Part shown: positions 7,906 to 53,356 of the stretch, in pieces
Position numbering within the stretch: the stretch's first letter is position 1
Layout: each line of letters starts with the position of its first letter
Origin: Armatimonadota bacterium
GTDB taxonomy: Bacteria > Armatimonadota > UBA5829 > DTLH01
Assembly: GCA_039680575.1 (NCBI GenBank)
Contig: JBDKSP010000020.1
Span: 9,238-73,237 of the forward strand
Length of the DNA: 64,000 bases
Reading direction: 5' to 3'
The notes under the pieces: model-generated
Databases searched by the model: none
What the model saw: the letters and a program-made list of their open reading frames with translations, nothing else
Told to the model about the DNA's origin: nothing
Made by a program: the position numbers and the translations under genes

Positions 7906-7999
7906 TGGCGGAGAGACCGGGATTCGAACCCGGGGTAGGGCTATATGACCCTACAACCGCTTAGCAGGCGGTCGCTTTCGACCACTCAGCCATCTCTCC
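7906..7999 (-). tRNA. tRNA-Ser (GCT)
   Basis: ggagagatggctgagtggtcgaaagcgaccgcctGCTaagcggttgtagggtcatatagccctaccccgggttcgaatcccggtctctccgCCA; long variable arm, encoded CCA. Confidence 0.96.
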
Positions 8000-10320: not shown

Positions 10321-10408
10321 GCATAAACCAATCCCCTAAATATTAAAGCCCTTTTTGAACTTCAATCTCCTGGGTAGACTTTTCATTGTCTGGTTCAGGA
10401 GGATTACT

Positions 10409-35290: not shown

Positions 35291-35671
35291 TTGAACAGCG
35301 TGCTGCGTGGTACGCTCGAAAACCAGCATTCGCGCAGGCTCCTGCTAAGGCTGATAAAACATCAGCTCAGCAGGGAGAGTGAGACTTACCGTCCCGATGA
35401 CATGCCTGTACAAGCCAAGATCGACAGGCTGGACTGCCTTTCGGGACTGCTCGATGAGTTCGCTGCCAGACTCGCGGAAGCAGGTAATATCACTCCGGCC
35501 ATTTCAGTTGAAGGATTCGAGACAGAGACCGATACAAGACGTGGAGAAGGGGTCCATGGGAGAATAATGAAAGCGTTCGATGCGCTCAGAAGACACGGCG
35601 TGCCCTTTGGCGTCTCCGCCACAGCCACCAGGCACAACTGGGATGGAAGCTCTATCGAGTCCTGTGGTTAG
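35291..35671 (+). pseudogene. Probable radical SAM protein fragment
   Basis: PAISVEGFETETDTRRGEGV...GVPFGVSATATR resembles the middle of a radical SAM barrel; no CxxxCxxC, no good start, truncated. Confidence 0.6.
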
Positions 35672-36444
35672 CGCTTCGGCTTGCACGCGAGAAGCGCAGC
35701 TCCAAGAGCGCCGGTCATCTGCGGGTTGGGCGCTGTTTCAACCCGATGTCCCAATACCCGTTCCAGCGCTTTGTCCATTCCGGGGACAAGCGCGACCCCG
35801 CCGGTGAATACAACCGGGGGAATAACTGATTTACCAGCCATTGATGTAATTCTTGTCGCGATGGAGTTCTGGACACCAGCGACTATATCTTCCGGCGGCG
35901 TCCCCGACGCTAAAAGCCCGATAATCTCCGTTTCCGCGAAGACTATGCACATGCTGCTGATCGCTGCTGGTGTTACACTCCTCGATGCAAGCTCTCCGAG
36001 TTCAGCCAGTCCCACGCTCAAACGGTCTGCGACGACTTCGAGAAACCGGCCTGTGCCTGCGGCGCACCTGTCATTCATCATAAAGTCCTGAACGGAGCCG
36101 CCGGGGCCGAGCTTAAGGAGCTTGCTGTCCTGCCCGCCGATTTCCACTACTGTGCGTGCTTCAGGAACCACGTGGTGCACGCCGCGGGCATGGCAGGTGA
36201 TCTCTGTGATCGTCGCATCGGCAATGCTGATGGTGTTTCGCCCATAGCCGGTCGCTACGATCTTTTGGACATCCTCGGAGTTGTGACTACTGTCCTTCAG
36301 GAGTTGCTCGAAAAGCTCCATTGCCAGATCATTGCTCTTTACACCCTGTCCAACCGTTCCTGATGTGATGACCTCGTGTGTCATGGTATCCATCAGGACT
36401 ATTTTTATCGCTCTTGATCCGGCATCTATTCCAACCCCGATCAT
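35668..36444 (-). CDS. ATP-dependent acyl-CoA dehydratase activase (HgdC/BcrAD/DCCP-R type)
   Basis: GIDAGS, ATGYGR, EITCH, EIGGQDSK, NDRCAAGTGRFL, CIVFAETE. Confidence 0.93.
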   Translation of the reverse strand: MIGVGIDAGSRAIKIVLMDTMTHEVITSGTVGQGVKSNDLAMELFEQLLKDSSHNSEDVQKIVATGYGRNTISIADATITEITCHARGVHHVVPEARTVVEIGGQDSKLLKLGPGGSVQDFMMNDRCAAGTGRFLEVVADRLSVGLAELGELASRSVTPAAISSMCIVFAETEIIGLLASGTPPEDIVAGVQNSIATRITSMAGKSVIPPVVFTGGVALVPGMDKALERVLGHRVETAPNPQMTGALGAALLACKPKR

Positions 36445-37811
36445 TACTTCCTCCACTCTCTTGCGGTTTCTATCAGTGCTTCTATTCTAGTCATTATCGT
36501 CGGCTGCATCGAATCTGTAAGCGGCGGCACTTCTATCTCCACCACCGGCAGGTTCAATTCAGCCTTAACGGCTCTCCCGATGACTGCGCCTTCTGTAGCG
36601 CAGTGGCTCGCTCCCGGTATCTTCGAGATCAGGACCGCTTCCGACCCGAATGCTTCGATATCTCTCATGATACGCTCTGCCCTGTCATGAGAACTCCCGA
36701 CCATCGGGTCAGCGAGCGCCATCCTGGCGAGAGCCTCCATCGGATGCAAATCTTCCGGTATCTCATCCAGCGCATGCGCGAAAAGGTAGTCAGCCCCGCA
36801 AATACGGCCACCGCAGTCTTCCAACACATTCATTGCGCGCAAATCCGCGACGGGGTTTACCCAGAATATACGGACAGAATCCTCCGGCAGTATCCCAATG
36901 CCTGAGCTTATACGTTTTTGCGCTTCAGCGAGCATATCCTGAAGCACCGCGGCAGTCTCTTCACGGTCGGAGCAGAAATGGATAGCGAACATCTCGGCAA
37001 TCTGCATTTCAAGCGCAGGTATCGGACTCGATTTTGCGGTAAAGACAGCTAATCGCAGCTCAGAAAGAGTCTTCCGCGCCTTATTTGCGGCTCGGATCCC
37101 GTCCTTCAGCATATCATCACTCAGTTTATATCCTGAAAGCTCTTCAAGCGCAGTCTTGACCCGCTCCAGCTCGGATTTTACGAACGCAACCTGATCGACT
37201 GTGGCGTAAAACCCGCCCGGAAGCCTGATTACCTTTTCATTCGGACCTGGTTTCCGTCTTGCGGGCATTTCCCACCAGTTGATCGGATACCCAAGCCCTT
37301 CTACCCGCTGTGCAATGGATGAGAAATCATCACAAGTCGCCCCAACGCTGCATGTGAGCATATCGGGAATCGGAAAATGCGCTTCGGTGACGAATGCTCC
37401 GAGCATCGCTCTCACAGGGCAGAATGATTCATCCAGCCCGTATGATGCGGCAAGGCCAAACAGACCCTCGCTCATTTCCATAATGCATGGAGTCCACCAG
37501 GCGCCGTCCGGGTAAAATGCTACCACATTCGGCAGAGAATATGCCATCACCGGGACTGTCCCGAGGTCTTTCATGACTCCGACCAGCTTTTTACCGTTGC
37601 TTCGGGCTTCACGCAGCCGGTCTTCTTCGGTCAAAAGGAAGTTCCAGAGCCGGAGCGCGGCTGCGGAATCATCATACCTGAGCTTGAGCAGCCTGAGGTC
37701 TCCATCCTCAACATGCCTTCTGAGCGGGCCGCCATACCAGGGCTCTTTCAGACCTGCTTCTTTCAGCTCGATATAATGCCTGTCCCAGTCGCTCAAGGTA
37801 ATTCCGCTCAT
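36444..37811 (-). CDS. 2-hydroxyacyl-CoA dehydratase family Fe-S protein
   Basis: ESFCPVRA, ATCDD, SHCATE, EIEVP...TRIEALIE. Confidence 0.82.
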   Translation of the reverse strand: MSGITLSDWDRHYIELKEAGLKEPWYGGPLRRHVEDGDLRLLKLRYDDSAAALRLWNFLLTEEDRLREARSNGKKLVGVMKDLGTVPVMAYSLPNVVAFYPDGAWWTPCIMEMSEGLFGLAASYGLDESFCPVRAMLGAFVTEAHFPIPDMLTCSVGATCDDFSSIAQRVEGLGYPINWWEMPARRKPGPNEKVIRLPGGFYATVDQVAFVKSELERVKTALEELSGYKLSDDMLKDGIRAANKARKTLSELRLAVFTAKSSPIPALEMQIAEMFAIHFCSDREETAAVLQDMLAEAQKRISSGIGILPEDSVRIFWVNPVADLRAMNVLEDCGGRICGADYLFAHALDEIPEDLHPMEALARMALADPMVGSSHDRAERIMRDIEAFGSEAVLISKIPGASHCATEGAVIGRAVKAELNLPVVEIEVPPLTDSMQPTIMTRIEALIETAREWRK

Positions 37812-38773
37812 TTGATCGACTCCATAAAAGCCTGAATCCTCGATGATGTACGGACATCAACGGTCCCGTCGTCATTCGCATCGATCTGAGTAAACGGCAG
37901 GCCGGACCATTCCTTCAGCCGGTAAGCCTCGGCGTTCCAGTTGTCACACCAGAGGTAACGGCGAAGTATGATGCCGCGCACCCCGCGTTCAGTAAGTTTT
38001 AGCTTAAGCCACTTGAACAACTCGTTGTTCGGCCTTCTGAACGCATCGTAAATTGTGTTGAAATAGGAATCAATAAGCGCTGACACAGGGTTTTCTTTAA
38101 GCAGCCTTCGGTCAAACGGCGCCGGAAGTGTCCTCTCACCCGTTTCGGTAGCATCCAGCGAGACATATCCTCCGGCACTCTCGATGAAATCGTATATGTC
38201 GCACTGATTAGCTGGAATCGGCCCGCCGACAAGAGCAACCGGAACACCTGAAGGCGTGTATTTTGTATCCTGAATAGCCTGGTCGAATTTACCGGTTCTA
38301 TTGAATTCCGATAAACGAAGAGCCCAATCACGGGGCGAAAGGCTTCCCTGAAGGTCACGAAGCGCAGCTCTGTTGTCGTTGTATTCGATCATCGTCTGTC
38401 TGAGTATATCTGGGGTGGGAGTGTTGCCTCCAAGCTCGATCAGAAAATCACCCAGCCGCTTCAGCTCAGAAATGTACAGCCGCTGCGCCTCGACTGTCTG
38501 CCAGGTGTGCGGGACGTGCATCAAAAACGCCGACAGATCTGTGTTTTCAGTGATGACATCGTAAATGCGTCTCATCTGGTCGCAGGCAGTTGTCACTATG
38601 ACCCCGGCAGCGGTTTTCTCTTCGATGGCAGCACCTGCAAATGAGCAGGCGTAAGGACACACACCAGGTCCCAGCTTGAGAGTCGAGCTGCCCGCCGATA
38701 TTCTCGATGGTAATAGCCCATGCGCCGCAATCCATTCAGCCGGGATGAACGGACAACTGTAGATGATCTTCAC
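37808..38773 (-). CDS. 2-hydroxyacyl-CoA dehydratase family subunit (HgdB/FldC-like)
   Basis: CPFIPAEWI, VCPYA, TTACDQMRR, LWCD, RIQAFME. Confidence 0.82.
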   Translation of the reverse strand: MKIIYSCPFIPAEWIAAHGLLPSRISAGSSTLKLGPGVCPYACSFAGAAIEEKTAAGVIVTTACDQMRRIYDVITENTDLSAFLMHVPHTWQTVEAQRLYISELKRLGDFLIELGGNTPTPDILRQTMIEYNDNRAALRDLQGSLSPRDWALRLSEFNRTGKFDQAIQDTKYTPSGVPVALVGGPIPANQCDIYDFIESAGGYVSLDATETGERTLPAPFDRRLLKENPVSALIDSYFNTIYDAFRRPNNELFKWLKLKLTERGVRGIILRRYLWCDNWNAEAYRLKEWSGLPFTQIDANDDGTVDVRTSSRIQAFMESIK

Positions 38774-38776
38774 GCT

Positions 38777-40033
38777 TCAGTCTCCACTGCAACCAAGCGC
38801 ATTACACGCGCTTTTGACGGTCTCGAAAAGCGCTTCGACTCTTACGGCGATCCGCGCGGAGTCCGAAGGCGAATAGTCCGTCTCGATCCTTAGAAACGGG
38901 AGATGCAGCTCGTTTTCAGCAAGCTGCTTTACCCGGTATGATTCTATGCTGTAAGTAATACATGCCTGCCATGCGAGGTCTATAATGCACTCAGCGCGGT
39001 ACTGCCTCGCGAGGTCGCGGACTATATCGATCCTGCGGTTGTTTTTCGTCATCACCGAGCAATGCAGGTTGAAATATTTTGCAGCGAGCGCGCGAACCGG
39101 GTCGTCTGCAGTAGGGTCGACATTCTCCAGGATCGGCTTCAAACCCGTGCAGTTCTCGGCGCAAACGATCAGCCCGCCGTGGTCCTCGATAATATCGACG
39201 ACCCTCTCAGCCCCGTGGACCACCGGAACGCCGGTCAGAAGGACTCTTACCCTCGACGACCTGTCGCCGTTTCCTGATTGACCCTCATATAGCTTAATCG
39301 CCTTTTTATACTGCTCCAGATCGGCAGGTATTCCCGATATGGTGCTCTTCAGCTCAAGTAACTGCCGTCCGGTAATTGGAGGGCTGTCCTGCTCCATAAG
39401 CTCTGCGAGTCTGAGTCTGAGCGAGCGCTCGTGGTTCATCACTTTGATCGCTTCTCTGATCTTCTCATCTGTAATCTCTACATTGAACCGTTTTTCAAGC
39501 TCGGACTTAAGTTTTCTTAGCTCAAGCACCCAATGTTCGAATGCGTCGGCATCATCCTGCTTTTGAGGAAGCTCTATTATATATGTCGGCCTCGACTCAG
39601 CCATCAGTTCGAACATCTTCTTTTTGCCGTCGCAGGTGGTCTCAGCGATGATAAGGTCAGACATCTCAAGAAACGGATTGGAACCAAGCGCGTGGTAACC
39701 GAATGTCGACTTGATGAGCGGACACAGGTTCGATGGCAAAACTTCTTCAGCAGCCGGAATAGTCTTGGCAGAGCCGCCGCAGAGACAGGCTGGTACGCCT
39801 CCCGCCGCCATTATCAGCTCTCTGGGGGCATACTCGCACATAATCCCGACAACCGGCCTGCCCTCGGACTTTGCCTTTTCAGCGTAATTCAGGCAGTTAT
39901 CGATCATGTTATCGAACCACTTGAGTGGAGCTGTAGGACCATGCCCGGTGGAGCAGGAGACAGCGCTTGGTGGGCAGCATGGGTCGCAGTTCTCTCTAGT
40001 AACTTGCTTATTGTTACCACAGCATTTGCTCAT
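38777..40033 (-). CDS. Double-cubane-cluster-protein-like / 2-hydroxyacyl-CoA dehydratase family reductase with Cys-rich N-terminus
   Basis: CEYAPRELI, CLCGGS, LPSNLCPLIKS, ETTCDGKKKMFE, ENCTG, CSVM, QACITY, IETDYS. Confidence 0.82.
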   Translation of the reverse strand: MSKCCGNNKQVTRENCDPCCPPSAVSCSTGHGPTAPLKWFDNMIDNCLNYAEKAKSEGRPVVGIMCEYAPRELIMAAGGVPACLCGGSAKTIPAAEEVLPSNLCPLIKSTFGYHALGSNPFLEMSDLIIAETTCDGKKKMFELMAESRPTYIIELPQKQDDADAFEHWVLELRKLKSELEKRFNVEITDEKIREAIKVMNHERSLRLRLAELMEQDSPPITGRQLLELKSTISGIPADLEQYKKAIKLYEGQSGNGDRSSRVRVLLTGVPVVHGAERVVDIIEDHGGLIVCAENCTGLKPILENVDPTADDPVRALAAKYFNLHCSVMTKNNRRIDIVRDLARQYRAECIIDLAWQACITYSIESYRVKQLAENELHLPFLRIETDYSPSDSARIAVRVEALFETVKSACNALGCSGD

Positions 40034-40045
40034 CTTGCTTAATTC

Positions 40046-40852
40046 CTAGTCTTTCTTGCGTGCAACGAATAACCCTTGAATGATTTTACCGGCATGTGCG
40101 AGCTCTTGAATGAACATCATCTCTCCTGCCAGCGCCTTAAAGAGCTCGGTATCATAACCGATGATCCTCAGCGCGTCGGAAGTGAGCTGCATATCGAGCA
40201 TAGCGAGGTAGAGGTCTATGCACGGAGCATATCTTCCGGTATCCTCGCAAACCTGCACATCGCAGCCGTTTGCCGTGAGTAAATCACAGTAGCCGTTTGT
40301 GTCCTGCAGGTTCGGGAACTTCATGAACCACATAAAACGGTCGGCTTCGTCTTTTGTAAGGCCGGACGGACCTTCGATCCAGTCGGTGAAAGCAATCGTC
40401 CCGCCCGGCTTTACCAAACGCGCCGCTTCGGCTATCAACTGCGGCTTGTCTTCGACATAGCACCAGGCGTCCTCACCCCAGATGAAGTCGGCTATGGAAT
40501 CTGGGATCCCGCTGTTGCAGACATCAGCGAGTGTAAATGTAGCTCTATTTGAAAAACCTTCTTCTCTGCATCGACACTGCGCGCGGTTCATTACTTCCTC
40601 TGTAGCATCGACTCCGTGCATGTGCTTTACATCCTGGAACCTCAGAAGAAACCTCATTCCGGCTCCATTGCAGCAGCAGAGATCGAGCCCGAAGCCTTTT
40701 CCAGCTACTTTGGCCTTCTCTGCAAGGTCCATGGACGATTTGAACCCGCCTATGTGGATCTGATGCCCCATAATCAGTTCCCACAGGTCGCCTACCGGAC
40801 CGCTGTATACAGACTGAACGTCACATAAACCAATGCCTTGAGTGTCTTTCAT
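40046..40852 (-). CDS. Class I SAM-dependent methyltransferase
   Basis: LDLCCCNGAG motif I, GVD, LVKPGG. Confidence 0.88.
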   Translation of the reverse strand: MKDTQGIGLCDVQSVYSGPVGDLWELIMGHQIHIGGFKSSMDLAEKAKVAGKGFGLDLCCCNGAGMRFLLRFQDVKHMHGVDATEEVMNRAQCRCREEGFSNRATFTLADVCNSGIPDSIADFIWGEDAWCYVEDKPQLIAEAARLVKPGGTIAFTDWIEGPSGLTKDEADRFMWFMKFPNLQDTNGYCDLLTANGCDVQVCEDTGRYAPCIDLYLAMLDMQLTSDALRIIGYDTELFKALAGEMMFIQELAHAGKIIQGLFVARKKD

Positions 40853-40885: not shown

Positions 40886-40948
40886 GAGTTTCAGGTATCG
40901 CCTGAAACTCTCCCGGAAGATTTTCTGCTATCGCCGAAAATCTATGAG
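40886..40948 (-). repeat. Family D double-hairpin element overlapping the selB 3' end
   Basis: Minus strand atagattttcggcgatagcagaaaatcttccgggagagtttcaggcgatacctgaaactc matches 63930-63990. Confidence 0.85.
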
Positions 40949-42862
40949 AAGTCTTTTGTCACCATCTCTTCTAGTGAGACAGGCGCTGTCGAAATATTCC
41001 AGAAGCGCGATTGCGTATTTCCGCGAAACCGAGAGAATGTCGCGCAGTTCGGCGGCAGTTATCCCGCCATTCGACTTGATGTATTCGACGACGGATATTT
41101 TGGCCTTCTCGAAGGTGTCTCTGTGATATGTGACCTTGTCGCTCAAGCGTATGAGCTGTCCCTGGTCGATAAGGCTTGTCATGATGTTCTTGAACACCTT
41201 TGGCGAAAGCCGCAGTTCATCCATCACATCGTCTTCGAGCGGAGTTGAGTAACCTGCCGAGAGAAATATAGACTCAATCCTCTCTGCAGCCTTCTGTTCC
41301 GCATCGGAGAGGCTCGACTCACGGTCTGCGAGTCCGAATTTATTGTCTCTTCTTACAAAAATCTTCTTCCTGTCAAGTTCCGAGGTGATTGCATCGAAGA
41401 CCTGCCGGTCAGCGAGTTTCAGGAACCTGGATTGCAGGTCTGCAGCAGGCATCATTGTTTTGTAAGCGTCTTTCGAGTAATAGTCCTTGATAATATTGAT
41501 CAGTTTTGCCGCAAGTTCATCGAACCTGTCTCTGTGAAGATACTTCTCTTGAGCGCCAGAAGTAACAGAGACGAGTTTTTCAACGCTGACAAGCGATTTT
41601 ATGACGTCGCCAACCGCTGCCTCACGTTCACCAATGGAAAAAGCGATCTCTGAGGCATTCTTTGGCACGAACCTGGACTTAAAAAAGGCATGGTCGACTA
41701 CATCGGAGATGCAACCTTCGAGTTTCTTCAGCCCCTTGATTGCCGCTTCATCGAAACGCTTATGATGCATGGGCTGTGAGTCGAGGATTGTCCCTCCGCC
41801 GATGGTTTCCTGCGAAGAGAACGACCGTATGACAAACCTGTCTTTTGGCAGCGCGGCGGTCGGTGACTCCAGCACGAGCTGAGCATAGCCGGTTTCATCC
41901 GGTACAAGAGTTTCTGTGTCCAGAAGCACTGCCCGGCACATCACCTCGTCTGTCCCGACGTGCAGTCTGACACGTGTGCGGTTTTTCAGTTCGTCATTGT
42001 AGCTCTGAGATACGAAAAGCCGGACATCGAGAAGCGCAGTAGGGGAGAGCGAGCCGGGAGCGCAGGCGACCTGCCCTCGCCTTAGTTGATCCTTCTTCAC
42101 ATCCTGAAGGCTGATAGCCGTTCTTCTTCCGAGATACGACCTTTCCCTGCTCTCATTGTGGATCTGTATTCCACGGACCCGTGCAGTTAGTCCATCCGGC
42201 ATTATCTCCAGCTTGTCGCCGATATTTACTTCACCGGAGAGGACTGTTCCAGCGATGACTGCACCGAAGCCCTGCAGCGCGAAAACACGGTCTACAGGCA
42301 TTCTGAATATCCCGCTGTCCCGGCGTTTTTTGGTCTTCCCGGCGACGGAAATGAGCGCGGACCGCACTTCATCGACTCCCACTCCGGTAATTGCAGAAAC
42401 AGGGATAATCGGCTGGCCTTCGAGGAATGTCCCAGCGACGAGGCTTTCTATTTCAGATTTGACGAGGCGAATATGCTCATCATCCACGAGATCGGCCTTC
42501 GTAATTGCAATTATTCCGGTTTCGACTCCCAGAATTCGCAGAATATCGAAGTGTTCGCGCGTCTGGACATTGATTCCCTCATCAGCAGCGACTACCAGGA
42601 GCGCGGCGTTTATGTTGCTCGCACCCGCGACCATTGTCTTGATGAGCTTTTCATGCCCGGGGACATCTATAAAGACGATCTGCCGGTCGAACCCAGGTGT
42701 TTGCATGAAGGCAAAGCCGAGCTCGATTGTGATTCCACGCTTTTTCTCTTCTGTAAGCGTATCACAATCGATTCCCGTGAGAGCCCTGACCAAAGCTGTC
42801 TTCCCGTGGTCTATATGCCCGGCAGTCCCGATTATTGTTTGTTCAATCTCATCTGATTTCAT
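40928..42862 (-). CDS. selB: Selenocysteine-specific elongation factor
   Basis: GTAGHIDHGKT, RGITIELGF, DVPGHE, C-terminal winged helix SRKYAIALLEYFD. Confidence 0.96.
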   Translation of the reverse strand: MKSDEIEQTIIGTAGHIDHGKTALVRALTGIDCDTLTEEKKRGITIELGFAFMQTPGFDRQIVFIDVPGHEKLIKTMVAGASNINAALLVVAADEGINVQTREHFDILRILGVETGIIAITKADLVDDEHIRLVKSEIESLVAGTFLEGQPIIPVSAITGVGVDEVRSALISVAGKTKKRRDSGIFRMPVDRVFALQGFGAVIAGTVLSGEVNIGDKLEIMPDGLTARVRGIQIHNESRERSYLGRRTAISLQDVKKDQLRRGQVACAPGSLSPTALLDVRLFVSQSYNDELKNRTRVRLHVGTDEVMCRAVLLDTETLVPDETGYAQLVLESPTAALPKDRFVIRSFSSQETIGGGTILDSQPMHHKRFDEAAIKGLKKLEGCISDVVDHAFFKSRFVPKNASEIAFSIGEREAAVGDVIKSLVSVEKLVSVTSGAQEKYLHRDRFDELAAKLINIIKDYYSKDAYKTMMPAADLQSRFLKLADRQVFDAITSELDRKKIFVRRDNKFGLADRESSLSDAEQKAAERIESIFLSAGYSTPLEDDVMDELRLSPKVFKNIMTSLIDQGQLIRLSDKVTYHRDTFEKAKISVVEYIKSNGGITAAELRDILSVSRKYAIALLEYFDSACLTRRDGDKRLLIDFRR

Positions 42863-42918
42863 GTTTTTATCTATCACGAAAGCACGAAAGGGAGAAAGGA
42901 AGAAAGAACCAGTGGATG

Positions 42919-43180
42919 TCGTGCTTCGGGATGTTATCACGAAGCATATGAGATTCCTCCTACCCTATCCCTCGGGCAGTATTTGAAATACTGCCCGGGC
43001 TGGCCAAAGAGGGATCTGTGATCCCGATCAATCAACTATAATCAATCTCCCGACATCAGAGATGCCTCGTTTGCCTTTCCGGGAGGAATTGCAAATCCCT
43101 CCCGAGTTGGTTGCAGACCGGCCACTACTTCTATTTCCTGATTTCTTATGCTTCGAGATTTTTTCATCCCGAAGCACGAG
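42919..43180. repeat. Composite repeat: family B palindromes flanking a family C hairpin doublet
   Basis: B at about 42920-42956 and 43148-43179; C 42971-43106 is the reverse complement of 53420-53562. Confidence 0.85.
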
Positions 43181-43219: not shown

Positions 43220-44812
43220 CTAAATCCTATTCATAACCGACTCATAAAACATCCTGACAGGTGCGCCGCCGAAAGAGATTGCCATCCATACTGCTTCATT
43301 GATCTCCTCCTCGCTGATCCCCATAGCCCGCGCTTTCTCGATGTGGATTTTGATGCATGGCTCACATTTAGATAGAACAGAAAGCGAGATCGCCATAAGC
43401 TCCTTCGTTCGGAGCGAAATGGCGCCGGATGCGTTAACGGCACGCATAAAGTCACCGAACTTCTCTTCTGCTGCGGATTGCACAGCTGTTTTCGTCTCGG
43501 TTGGCGCGGCGCAGCAGTCTGCACTCGTTGGCGAGCAGCAGCAAGCTCCGTCATTTGGTTCAGACATGTTGGTAATCTCCTTCCTCACCGGGGTGTATGC
43601 CTTGACGCTGGTTCTCAAGAAGATTCTACCTTCAGATTTTGAAACGACTTTTCCTATAACTACCGCGTGGCTCACACCTCTCGACCTGAGCTTTTCGACC
43701 AGTGCGTCGGCTTTTACCTCAGGGATAGCTATCAAAAGCCCTCCTGATGTCTGTGGGTCGTACAGGACATGGACTATCTCTTCCGGCACATCGTTCGACA
43801 CGGATACACGGCTGGAGGCATATTCGCTGTTCCTTTCGATACCGCCGGAGATGTATCCCTGTGCAACATAGTCCAAGATTTCATCGAAAACCGGCACCAG
43901 ATCCGTATATATTTCTGCTGTTACGCCGCTCTGCGATGCCATCTCGCCGAGGTGTCCGAGCAGCCCGAACCCCGTTACATCCGTAGCTGTCGTGACTCCC
44001 ATCTCGATCATAACCTCGGCTGCAGTCTTATTCAGCTCGGTCATGGAATTCGCTGCAGCGGCGAGCGCAGCGCCGGATGCTTTCCCCATCTGGCCGGCAA
44101 AGCTGATGATCCCGACTCCGAGCGGTTTTGTAAGCACCAATGCGTCGCCTGGCTGCGCCTTATCGTTTGTAACGATTTTGGACGGATTGACCATCCCCGT
44201 GACGGCATAACCGAACTTCGGGTCTTTGTCGTTGACGCTGTGTCCGCCTATGATTGCGACTCCAGCCTCTCGCATTTTATCCATTCCGCCGCGCAGCATT
44301 CGGGACATTATCTCGTGGCTCAGGGTCTCGATGGGAAAACCGATTATAGAAAGCGCGGTCATCGGCTTTCCGCCCATCGCATAGACATCGCTGAGTGAGT
44401 TTGCGGCGGCTATCTGCCCGAAAGTGTAGGGATCGTCGACACTCGGTGTAAAGACATCCACTGTCTGAACGAGCGCGGTCTCATCATCGATTCTATAGAC
44501 ACCAGCATCGTCGCACGTATTCGTCCCGACAAGAACGCGGGGGTCCGACACTTCCGGGAGCCCTGAAAGCACCTTTTTAAGGTCATTCTGGTTGATTTTG
44601 GAAGCGCAGCCCGCCTTCTCGACGAGTGTTGTGAGGTTAACAGCGTCAACTGTCTGATCCGGCCGTTCTCCGGCGCATGGACAGATACCCTTATTTCTAA
44701 AAGTGTCGCAAGGGCAGCCCTGTTTAGGGTTACAGATGCAGTGACCGAGCTTTATGGACCGCTGCATAACGCGGCGTCTTTTTTCGATGTCTATTTTCAT
44801 ATCATTACTCAT
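43220..44812 (-). CDS. selD: Selenophosphate synthetase with Cys-rich N-terminal domain and C-terminal AhpD/CMD domain
   Basis: AGCASK, DDAGVY, QTVDVF, AANSLSDVYAMGG, GGHS, TDVTGFGLLGH, DPQTSGGLL; C-terminal KELMAISLS...CEPC. Confidence 0.93.
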   Translation of the reverse strand: MSNDMKIDIEKRRRVMQRSIKLGHCICNPKQGCPCDTFRNKGICPCAGERPDQTVDAVNLTTLVEKAGCASKINQNDLKKVLSGLPEVSDPRVLVGTNTCDDAGVYRIDDETALVQTVDVFTPSVDDPYTFGQIAAANSLSDVYAMGGKPMTALSIIGFPIETLSHEIMSRMLRGGMDKMREAGVAIIGGHSVNDKDPKFGYAVTGMVNPSKIVTNDKAQPGDALVLTKPLGVGIISFAGQMGKASGAALAAAANSMTELNKTAAEVMIEMGVTTATDVTGFGLLGHLGEMASQSGVTAEIYTDLVPVFDEILDYVAQGYISGGIERNSEYASSRVSVSNDVPEEIVHVLYDPQTSGGLLIAIPEVKADALVEKLRSRGVSHAVVIGKVVSKSEGRIFLRTSVKAYTPVRKEITNMSEPNDGACCCSPTSADCCAAPTETKTAVQSAAEEKFGDFMRAVNASGAISLRTKELMAISLSVLSKCEPCIKIHIEKARAMGISEEEINEAVWMAISFGGAPVRMFYESVMNRI

Positions 44813-44948: not shown

Positions 44949-46349
44949 CTAGGAATGAACCTTTTTATTAAGAATCGCACGGAGCGCGTTTGCTACGACG
45001 CTGTCTTCGTCCGGCTGGATAGTCCTGAAATCGAATAACACAGACTCATGGTGTATACGCGCGAATATCGGAGTGTCGTTGTATCTGAGTTTTTTTGCGA
45101 GCAAGTCGGCAGACATGCTCTCAGGTTTTATGCTGAGAATCTTCGTAGGCATAGTCTCGGCAGGGACGGACCCGCTCCCGACCTGTGATCTGCCATCTAT
45201 TACGGATACCTCGGCTGATATGTCTCCAAGTTTGGCTGCAACGGTCAGCGCCCGTCTTTCAAGAACATCCAGCGGGATAGACAGCATTCTGTAAGTCGGA
45301 TGCCGCTCCTCCAGCCTGCCGGGTTCGAGGAACAGCTTGAGCGTAGCCTCCAGCGCCGCGACTTCCATCTTTCCTACTCTGAGAGCCCTCGCGAGCGGGT
45401 TTTTCTTGATCTTTTTGATGGTATTTTCCTTGCCGACAATAATCCCGGACTGCGGGCCGCCGATCAACTTGTCTCCGCTGAAGCAGATTGCGTCGCATCC
45501 CGCCTTTACACTTGCCTGCACCATCGGCTCAGGCTCGAGCCCGTAATTGGCGAGGTCGATTAAGGCACCGCTCCCCAGGTCGTCGATAATCGGGATGCCA
45601 TGTTCCTTCGCAATGGGCGCCATCTCTTCAATAGCAGGCTCTGCTGTGAACCCGACAATCCTGTAGTTGCTCTGATGAACATGCAGGATGGCTCCGGTGT
45701 TCTCGTTTATAGCAGAAGCATAGTCCCGAAGGTGGGTTTTGTTCGTAGTTCCGACTTCGCGCATGATCGCGCCGCTCGCCGCCATCACATCAGGCATCCG
45801 AAACGCGCCGCCGATCTCCACCAACTGTCCTCTGGAGACGATTACTTCCTTACCGGCTGCAATTGTGTTGAGAATCAGCATTGTGGCGGCTGCGTTGTTA
45901 TTTACAATGGTAGCAGCCTCAGCCCCGGTGAGTTCGCGGAGCAGTCCGGTTACATGGACATCCCGGCTGTCTCTTTGCCCTGTCTCAATACTTGTCGCAA
46001 GTGTGCAGTAGCCTTTTATAACATCACTTACCGCTTGAGCAGCCGCCTCCGAAAGCATTGCTCTGCCTAAGCCAGTATGAAGGATAATCCCTGCTGCGTT
46101 TACTGCATGCCGGATAGACGGTCTGAACCTGGCATCGATGTATTCCAGAACCATCAAACCTATATTCTCAGCCGATAGGTCCATCTCCGGCTTGTCTTCA
46201 GTGATGATCCGGCTGCGCAGCGTGTCCACGACTTTCCGGCATGAGTCGGCGAGAAATTCGCGGTCATGCTTATCTAGAGCAATCTTCAGCGCTTCCGTAT
46301 TCATCAATTCATCTATAGCAGGCAGTTTCCGCAGGATGTCTTTCTTCAT
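44949..46349 (-). CDS. selA: L-seryl-tRNA(Sec) selenium transferase
   Basis: LHTGLGRA, VNNNAAA, SRGQLVEIGG, FSGDKLIGGPQSG. Confidence 0.97.
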   Translation of the reverse strand: MKKDILRKLPAIDELMNTEALKIALDKHDREFLADSCRKVVDTLRSRIITEDKPEMDLSAENIGLMVLEYIDARFRPSIRHAVNAAGIILHTGLGRAMLSEAAAQAVSDVIKGYCTLATSIETGQRDSRDVHVTGLLRELTGAEAATIVNNNAAATMLILNTIAAGKEVIVSRGQLVEIGGAFRMPDVMAASGAIMREVGTTNKTHLRDYASAINENTGAILHVHQSNYRIVGFTAEPAIEEMAPIAKEHGIPIIDDLGSGALIDLANYGLEPEPMVQASVKAGCDAICFSGDKLIGGPQSGIIVGKENTIKKIKKNPLARALRVGKMEVAALEATLKLFLEPGRLEERHPTYRMLSIPLDVLERRALTVAAKLGDISAEVSVIDGRSQVGSGSVPAETMPTKILSIKPESMSADLLAKKLRYNDTPIFARIHHESVLFDFRTIQPDEDSVVANALRAILNKKVHS

Positions 46350-46384: not shown

Positions 46385-46422
46385 TAAAAATGGGGGCTGA
46401 CGTTTCACGTCAACCCCCATAT
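46385..46422 (-). terminator. Intrinsic terminator after the extended selenoprotein ORF
   Basis: Minus strand atgggggttgacgt-gaa-acgtcagcccccat-tttt. Confidence 0.8.
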
Positions 46423-46459: not shown

Positions 46460-47173
46460 CTATCTTGTCCAGATAGTATCCTTAATCTTTACCTTGAATG
46501 GGCCGGTTTTAAGTACAGGTCGAACTGTGACACGTCCTTTTACATTTGATGGTATTCCCCCGGAATACTCACATGTGCCGCCTCACCCATACTTGAACGA
46601 CCCACTCCAGACCACTTTGCCCGAGCTGTTTATGACTTGGAAGCGTGGAGGATCGGTTTCTCCATCAGATTTTTTGATTACACATTTGTTGTTGCCCTGA
46701 GCAGTAACTACGTTGAGGTCCATATTTGCCTTGTCGCCGTGCTTGGTGACTTTTATGGACGCGATGAAAGGCGGGCCAAAATTAAGTTTCTGAGTCTTAT
46801 TCGCCGAGACATCGATCTTGCGCGTATTACCAGGCGATATAGATGCGGTCCATTCCACCTTGTTCTTGTCCTTAGCTATCACGTCGCAGTTCCAGACCTC
46901 ATGGCTTCCGACGGGCAAAAGCAGTACACCATTAGTTGTAGAGTATTCGGTGATTTTCCTGCCTGAGTTGCTGAACATCGTAAGGACAGCGTTCCCATGG
47001 TAAAGGAGAGTCACTTTTCCCATCTTACCTTTGTACGTTTTGGGGTCAAAGCGACTGAATCCCAGCGTACCGCTGTTGGCTGGATAGGTGGTTATACCAA
47101 TTACCACCAACGCGCACACACCAGCTATAACTGATGCCATGAATTTTCTGGAGCATTTTGGAATTGTGGTCAT
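46460..47173 (-). CDS. Putative exported selenoprotein with U-G-G-T-C motif (TGA at 46585-46583 read as Sec), 237 aa
   Basis: Frame continues past TGA: FKYG-U-GGTCEYSGGIPSNVKGRVTVRPVLKTGPFKVKIKDTIWTR-TAG; SECIS-like hairpin; adjacent to selA. Confidence 0.8.
46542..46576 (-). promoter_or_regulatory. SECIS-like hairpin
   Basis: ACAU-G-UGA-GUAUUCC-GGG-GGAAUAC-CA-UCA-A-AUGU; G-rich apex 21 nt after the UGA. Confidence 0.7.
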
Positions 47174-47247: not shown

Positions 47248-48033
47248 CTACTTGGAGCCAAGTTTTAAATGGCCGATTGGTGTGCAGTCCAGGCACCTGA
47301 TGCATTCGGTGCTGTTGATGTCTTCAACCGGATCTATATCGACCGGGCATTTTTTCGCGCATGCGCCGCAGTGGGTGCACTTGTTCATCGCAAGACGCAT
47401 CCTGAAAAGGGATATTCTGTTGAAAAGCGAGAATATTGCGCCGAGCGGGCAGAACATCCTGCAGAAACCGCGGGTTACGAGTATCGTAAAGATAAAGAAG
47501 GCAGCCAGAATGGAAACCCTTACGTAAAACATAAAGTTTATAGGAGTAGTCGAGTGCAAAAACAGCCGGCGAGGAAGAGCTGATTCCAGTGTCCCGGATG
47601 GGCAGAAATTACAGAATGAGTATGGTGCGCCTGGAAAGAAAAACGGCACGGCAAATACCAGCCCGACCAGGACCAGATACTTTGTAAACCTGAGCGGCCG
47701 GGGTATCGAGAACTTCTTAACAGGAATTTTCGATAATAAGTCCTGCAGCAGCCCAAATGGGCAGACCCATCCGCAGACCAGCCTGCCAAAGAAAGAACCG
47801 ATCAGTCCGAGTATCCCTAAAGTGACGAACGGGATGATCCTGAGTGTCGAAAAGTTTACGAGCACGCCGATAGGGCAGGCAAACATAGATAGCGGGCACG
47901 AATGGCAGTAAAGCGCCGGACCGCACATGGTCTTCAGATCAAAAAAAGGAAGACCCAGGATAACGAGCGCGATAAGCTGGCTCAGATAGCGTAATCTTGC
48001 TAGTTGTTTAGTTCTTTTGATTATGGACCCCAT
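47248..48033 (-). CDS. Membrane 4Fe-4S binding protein (NapH/MauN/YccM-like)
   Basis: CHSCP, CGWVCPFG, CNFCP, CRMFCPLG, CTHCGACAKKCP, CIRCLDC. Confidence 0.9.
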   Translation of the reverse strand: MGSIIKRTKQLARLRYLSQLIALVILGLPFFDLKTMCGPALYCHSCPLSMFACPIGVLVNFSTLRIIPFVTLGILGLIGSFFGRLVCGWVCPFGLLQDLLSKIPVKKFSIPRPLRFTKYLVLVGLVFAVPFFFPGAPYSFCNFCPSGTLESALPRRLFLHSTTPINFMFYVRVSILAAFFIFTILVTRGFCRMFCPLGAIFSLFNRISLFRMRLAMNKCTHCGACAKKCPVDIDPVEDINSTECIRCLDCTPIGHLKLGSK

Positions 48034-48039
48034 AATCAA
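48017..48039 (-). promoter_or_regulatory. SECIS-like hairpin overlapping the downstream start codon
   Basis: UUGAUUAUGG-GGU-CCAUAAUCAA perfect 10 bp stem starting 15 nt after the UGA at 48057-48055. Confidence 0.7.
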
Positions 48040-48048
48040 TCCTCTCTA

Positions 48049-48339
48049 TTACAGTCAAGTAGGGCATGCTTTTCCGCCGGACTTGGACTTTCCGGCCTTT
48101 TGCTTATTTGGGGATATACTCGGTTTTTCGGCAGGAGCTTCCAGTTTTCCGTCTTTACCTCGGATAACGTCATGGGTCAGGCTGAGTTCCGTTACGGAGA
48201 GCTCAGTTTTTGAGGATTTACTCACCTCATGTTTAACAAAAAGGGTGGAATATAAGACAAACCCAGCGAAGACAATCGCTAGGACGATAAGGAGCAAAGG
48301 GCGCGCGCTTCGATATTCATCTGTACTCTGTATGGACAT
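48049..48339 (-). CDS. Small membrane-anchored putative selenoprotein ending in C-P-T-U-L (CxxU), 96 aa
   Basis: TGC CCT ACT TGA CTG TAA TAG; one TM helix; SECIS-like hairpin; selA, selD and selB nearby. Confidence 0.8.
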
Positions 48340-48507
48340 ATCTAACACCTTTTACAAAATACTGCAGTTCTTCAAGGTGAAAACGAGATCTATTTAATAC
48401 AGAAAGTTTATTCCAACAAAGAGCGGATGTCAAATTAAAATACGGCATAAACCCCGTACATCTTCTTTGATCGTTAATTTGACAGCAGGGTGCTGCGGGG
48501 ATAGAAT

Positions 48508-50544
48508 TTGACTACGATGAAAACTCCTTCCAAACCCACACATACACCTGGACTGTTCACAGCAGCGCTTGTGATCGTTGTGCTGGCTCTGGCTCCGTTC
48601 ATCGGAGGCAGGGATTCGGTGATCGAGACCGCTATTTTGGCTTCGATCGCACTGATTGCTCTTGGAACGATGATTTTCAGCCGGCGGTTTAGCAACCCCA
48701 TCGGTGTATGGCCGTTTGCCGTATTTGTAGGGCTTATTGCGGCATCATCCATAGTTACCGTCAGTTTCCACGCCACAATCGAACAGACTTTATACTTCGC
48801 CGCGTGTGCCGCAGCGGCGATAGCTGCATCATCGTCTCTCCGGAGCGATAAGCGGTTCATCACTGCGCTCTTTGTGCTTACCGGAGTAGGGTTGGTGCTC
48901 GGAGCTATGGCTGTTGTAGAGTATTGGGAGTCCGGCAGCGGCTGGCGGGTGTTCGGTCCGTTTTATAACCCCGGTTACTTCGGCGGTTACCTTGTAATGG
49001 TCGTCCCCATAGCGCTTGCCGTTTTTCTCACGAGCCGGTCGGTGGCTGTAGCAGCGGGCGGCGGGCTTGCCTGGGGGTTCTCTCTCGCCGCATTGCTCCT
49101 CACCGGGACCCGTTTGGCACTTGTTTTTACTCTGTTCTCGATCATTCTTTTCTTTGTTCTTGCGATATGGTGCCGAGCAATCGGTAAAAAGCAGTTGATC
49201 CATATTGCTGTCGCAGCGCTCATCGCTTTGATAGCAATATCGTTCTGCAGATCTACTGTAGAGAGCCGTGTCGAAGGTAAAGCCGCTGCTCAGCAGTCCC
49301 ATTCGTTCCCATTCAGGGTTGCGACCTGGAAAGGAACGGCGAATATAGTGCGCAAGCACCCGGTTCTGGGAACCGGCGCAGGAACATACGAGTTGGTATT
49401 CCAGAAGTATATGGTCGCGGGTTATACAAGAGTGGCTCATAACAGCTATCTCGAACTCGCCGCTGATACAGGGGTTCCCGCGCTTGCTGCAGGTGCGGTG
49501 GCGTTCGGCGTATTGTTCCTTACCGGTCTCAAAAACCTGCGCCGTGAGGATGACGAAGGTGGCAAATCCGAGCTTCTTCTGCCGCGGGGAGCAACGCTTA
49601 TGGCGTGCGCTCTGGCGGCGGCGCTTGTCGGGGCGCTCGCCCGAAACATGTTCGATTCGGATATTTACAACCCCGGAATAGGGTTCACTTTCTGGACATT
49701 GGCTGGAATACTCGCAGCCCGCGCCCCTGTTATAAAGGAAGCCAAACCATCGGCGGCGGCTCGTGTCGGGATATCCATTTTGATTGGCGCGATGATCGTC
49801 GTGTGGTCGCTTTTTGCAATGGCTAAAAGTTCGGCTGAAACGGCGGTTTTTCTGCTTCAAAACGACGATCAACCGGGTGGTATCGAGCATCTCCGCACTG
49901 CAGTTGATTATGACCCGCTCTGCGGCGAGTACCGTATGCGGCTTGGGCAATCGCTTGTTTATGTTTCAGATGGTGATGAAGCCCAGTGGAAAGAAGGGGT
50001 TGCATCGCTTAATAAGGCTATCAGGCTGGAACCGACAAGAGCGCGGAATATGATCGCACTTGCCAGGATTTTGCGCGCAAATGGCGACGATAACGGCGCA
50101 ATCCGTATGTTCGGAAAGGCGCTTATTGCGGACCCGCATGCCACACCGGCTATGGTGGCAATGGCAGACATTTGGATAAAATCGAAAAAGACACAGCTTG
50201 AGGCAGAGTTGATGTACGAGCGGCTAATAGATCAGGAAAAAAGCCCGGTCGAAGAACTCCGAGGCGTACCGGAGATTGTCAACCCGGACTATGTCTGGGC
50301 GCATTTCTATTTTGGATCGAAATATTTCTCTGAAAAAAACTGGAACGATGCAGCTAAGCAGTTCAACGCAGTGATCGAAAGGCTTGAGCTCAGAAAATCG
50401 TTCACAGTCCAGCGGCAGGCAGCAGAGGCATCAGGGATGTTCGATCCAGAAGAGGAATATGCGCTCGATGACGTGTTGCAGCGTTCAAAAGGCGGGCTTG
50501 CCAAGGCAAAAGCGAATGAAGTGAGGGCAGACGATGCCCGCTAA
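48508..50544 (+). CDS. O-antigen ligase-like membrane protein with C-terminal TPR
   Basis: GPFYNPGYFGGY, HPVLGTGAGTY, AHNSYLE; TPR-like C-terminus. Confidence 0.85.
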   Translation: MTTMKTPSKPTHTPGLFTAALVIVVLALAPFIGGRDSVIETAILASIALIALGTMIFSRRFSNPIGVWPFAVFVGLIAASSIVTVSFHATIEQTLYFAACAAAAIAASSSLRSDKRFITALFVLTGVGLVLGAMAVVEYWESGSGWRVFGPFYNPGYFGGYLVMVVPIALAVFLTSRSVAVAAGGGLAWGFSLAALLLTGTRLALVFTLFSIILFFVLAIWCRAIGKKQLIHIAVAALIALIAISFCRSTVESRVEGKAAAQQSHSFPFRVATWKGTANIVRKHPVLGTGAGTYELVFQKYMVAGYTRVAHNSYLELAADTGVPALAAGAVAFGVLFLTGLKNLRREDDEGGKSELLLPRGATLMACALAAALVGALARNMFDSDIYNPGIGFTFWTLAGILAARAPVIKEAKPSAAARVGISILIGAMIVVWSLFAMAKSSAETAVFLLQNDDQPGGIEHLRTAVDYDPLCGEYRMRLGQSLVYVSDGDEAQWKEGVASLNKAIRLEPTRARNMIALARILRANGDDNGAIRMFGKALIADPHATPAMVAMADIWIKSKKTQLEAELMYERLIDQEKSPVEELRGVPEIVNPDYVWAHFYFGSKYFSEKNWNDAAKQFNAVIERLELRKSFTVQRQAAEASGMFDPEEEYALDDVLQRSKGGLAKAKANEVRADDAR

Positions 50545-52224: not shown

Positions 52225-52410
52225 GTAACTCAAGAAGTTATGATTGAGATACCGGGGTGGAGGGGCTAGCTATGCTTCTGCGTCCTCTGACAAGGACGAC
52301 AGCGTCCCGAAGACATCCCCCACCTCCATATAAGCGTCAATTGGAATATTGCGGCTCCTAGTGGAGACCGACTATCACGCAAGCAAACGCTCGTGGAGAT
52401 CCACCCCGAA
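52225..52410 (+). ncRNA. Predicted bridge RNA (boundaries approximate)
   Basis: tatgcttc (52271-52278) equals the left target; gtcccgaag (52304-52312) is the reverse complement of the right target; they flank the hairpin cgtcct-ctgaca-aggacg; second loop has imperfect donor matches. Confidence 0.75.
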
Positions 52411-52432
52411 CTACAAGCGAGGTAATTATAGC

Positions 52433-53356
52433 ATGAAGTTCTATGGAGTGGATGTAAGCAAGGATACCCTAGACATCTGTAGCGATGCCAAGATAGTGCA
52501 GATCGGTAATGACAAGAAGTCTATCAGGTCCTTTCTTAAGAGTGTATCTTCCGGCAGCGTGGTGGCAATGGAGTCGACCAATAAGTATCATCTGGTGATG
52601 GCAGATTTATGTTATGCGGCTGGGATGAAGGTGTATGTGGTGAATCCTCGCATGACTCGCCACTACCGGGAAGCTCTGAATCTGCGCGGTCATACTGACA
52701 GGCTGGATGCAAAGACGATTAGCTCGTATATTAAGCATCATCACGATGATCTGCGTCCTTATGTGCCTAAGTCCACCGACCAGCGGAGACTGCAGGGCAT
52801 AATCCGCAGGAGAGCGAAGCTCGTAGCAGTCAAAGTGCAACTGCACCAAAGCATGCAGGAAATCAAGGAACTCAAGAGTGATCTGGATGCTGTGCTAAAA
52901 CGTATAGATAAGATGCTGGTTCAGATCGATGTGCTCATAGACAAGCAATTGGAAGGTAACGTAGGTCGTGATCGGCTTGCAACAATAACAAGTGTAGGCC
53001 CAGTAGTGAGCGCGGCTCTGGTTGCCGATTTGGATGCAGGGGAGTTTGTAAGCGCTGATGCCTTTGTTGCATTCTATGGACTTGACCCGGTGCCCAATGA
53101 CTCCGGCAAGTCCAGGGGCAAAAGGAAGATCAGCAAGAAAGGCCATAGACTTGGTAGGACCCTGCTCTATGTCTCCGCACTGTCGGCAGCCAGCTCAAAA
53201 GCCTGGAAGCCAGTATACGAGCACATACTCGCAAAGGGCCTCACGCGGGTGTAGGCATTGGTTTGCCTTGCCCGCAAGATAGCCCGAACTGCCTGGTCGG
53301 TATATACACATAAGACAGTGTTTGAGGCAGAAAGACTACTTGTGGGCTTGACATAA
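52433..53356 (+). pseudogene. IS110 recombinase with premature in-frame TAG at 53252-53254
   Basis: GVDVSK, MESTNKY, HTDRLDA, DSGKSRG; after TAG the frame continues ALVCLARKIARTAW...GLT-TAA. Confidence 0.88.

Follow-up and report, generated by a model that had tools for sequence, protein, structure and literature searches.

A putative membrane-anchored selenoprotein with a C-terminal CxxU motif beside a 4Fe-4S membrane protein: an apparent Sec-based form of the CD1871A/4Fe-4S-type module in Armatimonadota and Planctomycetota

The window, meaning the whole 64,000-nucleotide stretch of Armatimonadota DNA analysed here (contig JBDKSP010000020.1), carries on its minus strand a three-gene unit formed by a small membrane protein gene, a gene for a 4Fe-4S membrane protein and a second putative selenoprotein gene, with sel genes downstream. 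In the order of transcription, the features are:

48405..48433, minus strand: sigma70-like promoter candidate upstream of the small gene, with 10 of 12 consensus matches and called by consensus alone
48049..48339, minus strand: gene for a small single-transmembrane (TM) protein, identified with the help of homologs, 96 residues long if the UGA is read and then ending C92-P-T-U95-L96
48055..48057, minus strand: putative selenocysteine (Sec) UGA codon, TGA in all Sec-type loci against mixed control stops
48040..48046, minus strand: Shine-Dalgarno-like purine run for the Fe-S gene, its function presumed from sequence, overlapping the second stop of the small gene and abutting the hairpin
48017..48039, minus strand: SECIS-like hairpin, a perfect 10 bp stem with a GGU loop, found by folding and alignment and containing the Fe-S ATG (48033-48031)
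47248..48033, minus strand: NapH/YccM-like 4Fe-4S membrane protein of 261 residues, with four hydrophobic segments, two CxxxCP motifs and C-terminal ferredoxin-like Cys residues
46460..47173, minus strand: second putative selenoprotein of 237 residues, with a signal-peptide-like N-terminus and FKYG-U197-GGTC in a C-terminal Ig-like domain
46552..46568, minus strand: SECIS-like hairpin of the second gene, 7 bp with a GGG loop, 21 nt after its UGA
46390..46420, minus strand: intrinsic-terminator-like hairpin, recognised from sequence, between the three-gene unit and selA
44949..46349, minus strand: selA (TIGR00474, 558.7 bits, over the cut-off)
43220..44812, minus strand: selD in its Cys form, extended at the N-terminus by a Cys-rich stretch and at the C-terminus by a CMD/AhpD domain
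40928..42940, minus strand: selB (TIGR00475, 353.9 bits, over the cut-off)
35668..40852, minus strand: 3' of selB, a methyltransferase, a double-cubane reductase (NF040772, over the cut-off), two related dehydratase-type subunits and an activase

The small gene begins at ATG 48339, with GTG 48348 as an alternative start, and the frame from this ATG runs for 94 residues to an ACPT end, followed by TGA, CTG, TAA and TAG. The initial annotation had described this end, TGC CCT ACT TGA CTG TAA TAG with its double stop, without naming a strand; it lies at 48066-48046 on the minus strand, and the second stop (48048-48046) directly follows the gene's own. Its product contains a single hydrophobic segment, at residues 15-33, and has a tail rich in Lys. 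A protein collection holds it as P0094, a 94-residue protein cut at CPT, which is just the loss of two terminal residues that the initial annotation had foreseen. The UGA site is unchanged in the contigs of two other runs (X2 and X3) that span it. A plus-strand reading of 48049..48339 is ruled out by in-frame stops, and an overlapping plus-strand ORF at 48017-48397 is regarded as a shadow because the minus-strand protein is the one that homologs conserve. Pfam and NCBIfam 20.0 contain no family for the small protein or for the product of the second (GUGG) gene, and four U-read members of the small-protein family gave no NCBIfam family at E <= 0.01.

Loci for comparison were gathered through the Fe-S gene, and hence independently of how the upstream gene ends. 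After removal of duplicates L014 and L017, the set of 95 comprised 15 genome loci and the best 80 of 570 metagenome matches. Comparing Cxx-TGA with CxxC endings upstream of these Fe-S homologs, as had been proposed, shows that within this set the upstream gene ends in C-[PSA]-[TS]-TGA in 76 loci (CPT in 65, CST in 5, CAT in 5 and CPS in 1), termed Sec-type here, and that a CxxC-IGIG-type gene stands upstream in 14 (7 distinct). The remaining five include three loci with 16 nt or less of upstream DNA, L080, which reads WPT-TGA with the Cys missing and the hairpin intact, and L093, where the tail of the small gene is lost. An ending in TAA, TAG or Cys at the Sec position, including the CPT-TAA/TAG form that would have spoken for an ordinary stop, occurs in 0/95 loci, again counting the best 80 of 570 metagenome matches, and this favours Sec.

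Across the 76 Sec-type loci, the Sec-position codon is always TGA, and a stop follows after zero to two residues (after exactly two in 56). Control stops from the same loci are mixed: the stop after the Sec-position TGA is TAA in 30, TGA in 26 and TAG in 20, while the Fe-S gene ends in TAG in 28, TAA in 24 and TGA in 23, with one contig end. The invariant TGA therefore does not reflect a stop preference. A profile search of 1.84 billion protein representatives gave 92 matches, 90 of them members of the small-protein family, and all 90 end at C-x-[TS] (83 at CPT) in protein records, where stop codons are not visible. The sole invariant residue in 87 aligned small proteins is C92. Cys orthologs are the usual supporting criterion for selenoproteins, though not a defining trait. 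The Cys counterpart that the initial annotation had looked for did not emerge, as no ortholog with Cys at the Sec position was found in the 76 loci or the 90 protein representatives, and only the analog CD1871A has CxxC; this would explain why homology-based screens missed the small protein. A pattern search of 251 genomes of the phylum Planctomycetota returned seven matches, of which L138 and L143 are chance matches. A further match, L142, is an extra copy: on contig C6 of genome G061 (L142/L155), a second CPT-UGA gene with a hairpin lies directly after selD, without an adjoining Fe-S gene.

The perfect 10 bp hairpin with a GGU apex reported earlier is present at 48039-48017, with a stem that begins 15 nt 3' of the UGA and a minimum free energy (MFE) of -10.1 kcal/mol. 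Within this genome alone it departs only modestly from chance (z -1.9, or -1.5 in a longer window), and hairpins of at least six Watson-Crick pairs with a G loop follow about 2% of ORF ends (TAA 18/1010, TAG 20/866, TGA 15/833). The case that it exceeds chance therefore comes from conservation across loci and not from single-genome statistics. An unguided alignment of 76 regions contains an 8-bp stem in which 97% of cells are paired, and RNAalifold predicts the same stem unaided. Seven of the eight pairs carry two-sided changes, in counts that related sequences among the 76 regions inflate, and the two innermost pairs hardly vary; with these compensatory changes, the hairpin conservation that the initial annotation had singled out for checking is borne out. 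None of 500 shuffles scored as high on four of five measures, and slid controls reached 17-44%.

In 75 of the 76 regions, a G is found among the first two loop nucleotides, and the loop lies 17-28 nt after the UGA. The bacterial SECIS consensus in the available passages of PMC13188914 allows a loop of 3-9 nt, a stem of 4-16 bp, a G in the first two loop positions, a distance of 16-37 nt from the UGA and an MFE of -7.5 or lower, and the small gene's hairpin agrees with it. Rfam has no family at the hairpin. Together, the invariant TGA and the covarying hairpin support the earlier proposal of a small membrane-anchored protein with a Lys-rich tail and a penultimate Sec in a CxxU motif. Judged by sequence comparison, the product of the gene is very likely a selenoprotein that is anchored in the membrane and ends C-P-T-U-L, and the probability that Sec is inserted at its UGA is put at roughly 95%.

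The second gene was absent from the initial annotation, as was the overlap of the hairpin with the Fe-S start. Its UGA lies at 46585-46583 (minus strand), beyond which the frame continues for 40 more residues, and homology in the family extends for about 40 aligned residues past the UGA. The family motif is FxYG-U-GGTC. Genes of this GUGG type occur in 26 of the 76 Sec-type loci, where 33 of 33 motif matches have TGA, and in 0/7 CD1871A-type loci. Profile searches of whole genomes found TGA at the Sec position in 48 of 49 matches overall: the 61 relatives contribute 20 of 21 (the exception has Ser) and two Planctomycetota 12 of 12, while four of five further genomes account for 16 of 16, with up to nine matches per genome. 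Structure prediction gives the domain a beta-sandwich fold (pLDDT 78), and a fold search returned generic Ig-like beta-sandwiches (best Z 5.6) and no specific relative. The domain occurs in fusion with a variety of proteins whose N-termini resemble signal peptides, and the longer of these proteins match Pfam and NCBIfam families through their other domains alone. A protein-database search gave one degenerate UGA-free variant, and the family seems to lack ordinary Cys orthologs. NF049953 (Hypothetical protein DG, GUxG selenoprotein) has no match on this contig and two weak N-terminal matches elsewhere. A third putative selenoprotein of the GUGG type is found on contig C47 of the same genome (TGA at 10387, plus strand), with about 470 residues, a signal-peptide-like start and a similar hairpin.

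The genome itself contains selA, selB, selD and tRNA-Sec, the last on another contig. Some sel gene is present in 53 of the 76 Sec-type loci and tRNA-Sec in 45, in 42 of them on the same strand and within 800 nt upstream of the UGA; the seven CD1871A-type loci scanned have no tRNA-Sec. Of 61 relatives, 13 carry the Fe-S/small-gene pair; each of these also matches selA, G033 and G049 only in part. selA occurs in 40 of the 61 and the pair in none of the 21 selA-negative genomes, in counts where kin are not independent. An activase is present in 10 and a double-cubane reductase in 5 of the 76 Sec-type loci. According to the available part of 10.1101/2022.07.06.499078, double-cubane reductases are themselves linked to SelD, which the genes 3' of selB echo here. 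At about ten loci (L053:1389-3809, L055, L059, L060, L062 and others), exported carboxypeptidase-regulatory-repeat proteins end in an AhpC/TSA-like domain without CxxC. In the window's own genome, a molybdopterin enzyme, five AhpC/TSA matches and FlpD have no in-frame stop in their matched parts, and no classical selenoprotein is found among them. A free motif scan for further selenoproteins in the genome was too noisy for use.

The closest named relatives by the Fe-S protein are Armatimonadota (92% and 57% identical), and two Planctomycetota loci follow at 39-41%. Its CxxxCP motifs and ferredoxin-like Cys residues presumably lie on the cytoplasmic side, as in the NapH topology we assume for it. 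Six extra conserved Cys residues (C37, C43, C46, C53, C141 and C144) fall in the two loops that this topology places outside, and they are predicted to face outward. In Armatimonadota-type proteins, the second ferredoxin-like motif (C244-C250, at about 47270-47305 on the minus strand) lacks the usual fourth Cys, and the nearly invariant His255 that follows it is possibly an atypical cluster ligand. A PDB sequence search with the Fe-S alignment gave 0 matches, the AlphaFold model of the Fe-S protein is poor (pLDDT 52), and the complex predicted for the small protein and the Fe-S protein scores 0.18 vs a mark of 0.32.

The small protein probably has its N-terminus inside and its C-terminus outside, as hydropathy, NapH similarity and charge bias suggest. 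In 80 small proteins, Lys plus Arg averages 2.6 before the TM segment vs 1.5 after it; the bias is weak in the window's own protein, and a cruder count favours N-in in only 56 of 87. The family also shares a short conserved beta-type segment with E46, R60 and G64, and in the same 80 proteins the tether beyond the TM segment spans 48-171 residues. The C-terminal CxxU is accordingly placed outside the cytoplasm in this prediction, where it could act on its flexible tether as a mobile redox arm of the adjacent Fe-S protein. In the proposed sequence, SelB would bind the hairpin, Sec would be inserted and zero to two further codons read, a step we consider very likely. The ferredoxin-like clusters and CxxxCP motifs on the cytoplasmic side would then take up electrons and hand them to the six outward Cys residues of the Fe-S protein. 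There, the tethered CxxU would be reduced and would in turn reduce exported proteins, chiefly the U-GGT-C Ig-like selenodomains. Such a role would be analogous to the one apparently filled by CD1871A, with its CxxC, and an exported thioredoxin at sister loci.

Taken as a whole and with its direction, this outward-facing selenol/thiol electron relay is inferred at every step and has about even odds. Four of the 13 carrier genomes have no GUGG-domain match and two genomes have the domain without a close Fe-S ortholog, so the domain is not an obligate client of the relay. DsbD and CcdA are transmembrane reductant conduits that pass cytoplasmic electrons to exported redox proteins. The relay is akin to them in its proposed logic alone, since the proteins are unrelated and those considered here are Fe-S and Sec based. 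Because the genome also has a DsbD/CcdA-type gene (DsbD_TM), the relay would not be its only possible outward reductant route.

An in-frame Fe-S start codon lies inside the hairpin in 67 of the 76 loci, which could also mean that the UGA is a true stop, that the protein ends at CPT and that the hairpin is a translational operator over the Fe-S start, either SelB-bound or structural. SECIS-like autoregulation of selAB in E. coli offers a precedent, and SelB autoregulation in that species is mentioned in the available passages of PMC8124441. Such an operator would leave unexplained the TGA in every Sec-type locus, the second stop zero to two codons on and the narrow distance from UGA to loop. 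Of the nine loci without an in-frame start in the hairpin, L011 and L025 look like frameshifted assemblies, but L081, L082, L095, L105, L124 and L054 keep the hairpin at the same UGA distance. L081 and L095 replace both ATGs by paired changes while stem and distance persist, so the hairpin tracks the UGA and not the start codon. The same type of hairpin also follows the internal UGA of GUGG genes, with no start codon near, and a terminator-like hairpin parts the three-gene unit from selA. An operator beside a true stop is thus very improbable. If Sec is inserted at the UGA, as we prefer, the burial of the Fe-S AUG in the hairpin suggests that read-through might make synthesis of the Fe-S protein depend on the supply of selenium, a tentative idea with somewhat less than even chances.

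The remaining alternatives accept a selenoprotein and assign it another task. In a module for selenium acquisition, reduction or capture of selenium species from outside would fall to the Fe-S protein and CxxU arm, with the exported U-GGT-C domains as carriers and the SelD-CMD fusion as recipient of the product. Very tight linkage to selC, selD and selA fits this picture, as do the SelD-linked double-cubane reductases nearby and the extended SelD, which recurs in 15 of 54 larger Sec-type loci with an N-terminal extension that has no Pfam match. So does one locus (L148:3658-8737) where an NMT1-type ABC transporter, possibly for selenium uptake, and a MetA-pathway-like protein stand between GUGG genes and selD. 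Yet selenoprotein genes often cluster with sel genes anyway, 27 of the 40 selA-positive relatives do without the module, and the sister Cys system uses the same Fe-S scaffold with no sel genes nearby, so acquisition appears unlikely. Alternatively, Cys and Sec might be metal ligands that complete an outward metal or Fe-S site with the six outside Cys, making the small protein a subunit instead of a shuttle. The six conserved extra Cys suit such a site, the absent Cys orthologs suggest chemistry that needs Se, and the beta-type segment could be a docking site; however, a motif on a low-complexity tether of such variable length is more typical of a swinging arm, and thioredoxin-fold proteins are paired with the system at sister loci. 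We regard a fixed metal site as improbable and keep to the relay.

Comparison with known systems places the module closest to CD1871A. The CxxC genes at the same position beside more distant Fe-S homologs are CD1871A (NF040920), which upholds the earlier statement that small CxxC proteins partner this type of 4Fe-4S protein. Both are small single-TM proteins that carry a Cxx[C/U] motif at the C-terminus, are encoded immediately 5' of a member of the same Fe-S family and have a redox-type exported neighbour; in all four CD1871A-type loci scanned for it (of seven), an exported thioredoxin/TlpA-type gene lies directly upstream. The claim that the small protein is a Sec variant of this partner did not hold, because the two families are not homologous. 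The NF040920 model, with a membership cut-off of 32 bits, matched CxxC control proteins (two of four over the cut-off) and gave no match to the small CPT-UGA protein, for which hhalign returned a probability of 1.1%. A search with it over the relatives found no match anywhere, the controls also being without one, and so carries no weight. A tree of the Fe-S proteins separates Sec-type from CD1871A-type partners (100/98), with 81 rows after two Sec-type rows were dropped by a length filter and with three CD-type rows as long branches. Furthermore, the small UGA protein is longer, has the conserved beta-type segment and tether, always has UGA with a SECIS, and is accompanied by sel genes and Ig-like U-GGT-C proteins. 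No description of CD1871A by name was found in the literature, so its function is itself only inferred.

Other likenesses are more limited. SaoC (NF040734) has Sec at its extreme C-terminus, a SECIS beyond the stop and double-cubane neighbours, and a 7-bp stem with a GGU loop was accepted as its SECIS in the available part of 10.1101/2022.07.06.499078; however, it ends in CU, has Cys forms and belongs to an ABC-transport operon, whereas the small protein ends in CxxU and has no NCBIfam match. The UXX-star selenoproteins (NF041114, NF041211 and fusions) recall the ending of U, two residues and a stop, if their motif is what we take it to be. Their family names are listed in Table 1 of PMC13188914, as far as available. 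They differ in that no HMM match links them to the small protein, which has C-P-T before U, is membrane-anchored and, in the window's member, has one residue after U. The Fe-S partner resembles NapH/MauN/YccM (TIGR02163) in its two CxxxCP motifs and C-terminal ferredoxin-like Cys, but it scores 59.1 bits against a cut-off of 213 and has six extra conserved Cys. No nitrate-reductase genes were seen in its neighbourhood.

By these comparisons, the module is apparently a CD1871A/4Fe-4S-like arrangement in a new, Sec-based form, and its two selenoprotein families seem not to have been described before. Among the 119 families of the 2026 catalogue, as listed in the available Table 1 of PMC13188914, there is no entry with either motif or a matching description. 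The available passages of the literature, including 10.1101/2022.07.06.499078, PMC13326102, PMC12013277 and PMC8124441, describe neither family, and BSepDB, Haft and Tolstoy 2025 or supplements could hold a mention. Both families would therefore lie beyond Pfam, NCBIfam 20.0 and that catalogue, in phyla that these passages do not mention. The deep-Sep authors, in the available text of PMC12013277, name families without Cys orthologs as a blind spot of their own method. As ordinary Cys orthologs appear to be missing from both families here, others like them may have escaped notice.

The findings also place a redox-type motif on an Ig-like fold, in the GUGG domain, and suggest for the still uncharacterised CD1871A/4Fe-4S pair a function that can be tested, namely moving electrons outward. 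The SECIS that overlaps the next gene's start is a natural case in which selenium-dependent translational coupling can be tested. In the boldest combination, Armatimonadota and Planctomycetota would possess a so far unrecognised extracytoplasmic redox system that is obligately Sec-dependent, built from a 4Fe-4S membrane conduit, a CxxU shuttle on its tether and exported Ig-fold U-GGT-C selenoproteins, as many as nine per genome; this system might be the main reason why the Sec machinery is kept, with the SECIS as a selenium-sensing switch that buries the Fe-S start. As a joint claim, this is doubtful.

Elsewhere in the window, and unrelated to the small gene, lie a divergent O-antigen-ligase/TPR gene (48508-50544, plus strand), a probable IS110-like transposase judged from its translation (52349-53254, plus strand) and a tRNA-Ser (7906-7999, minus strand).
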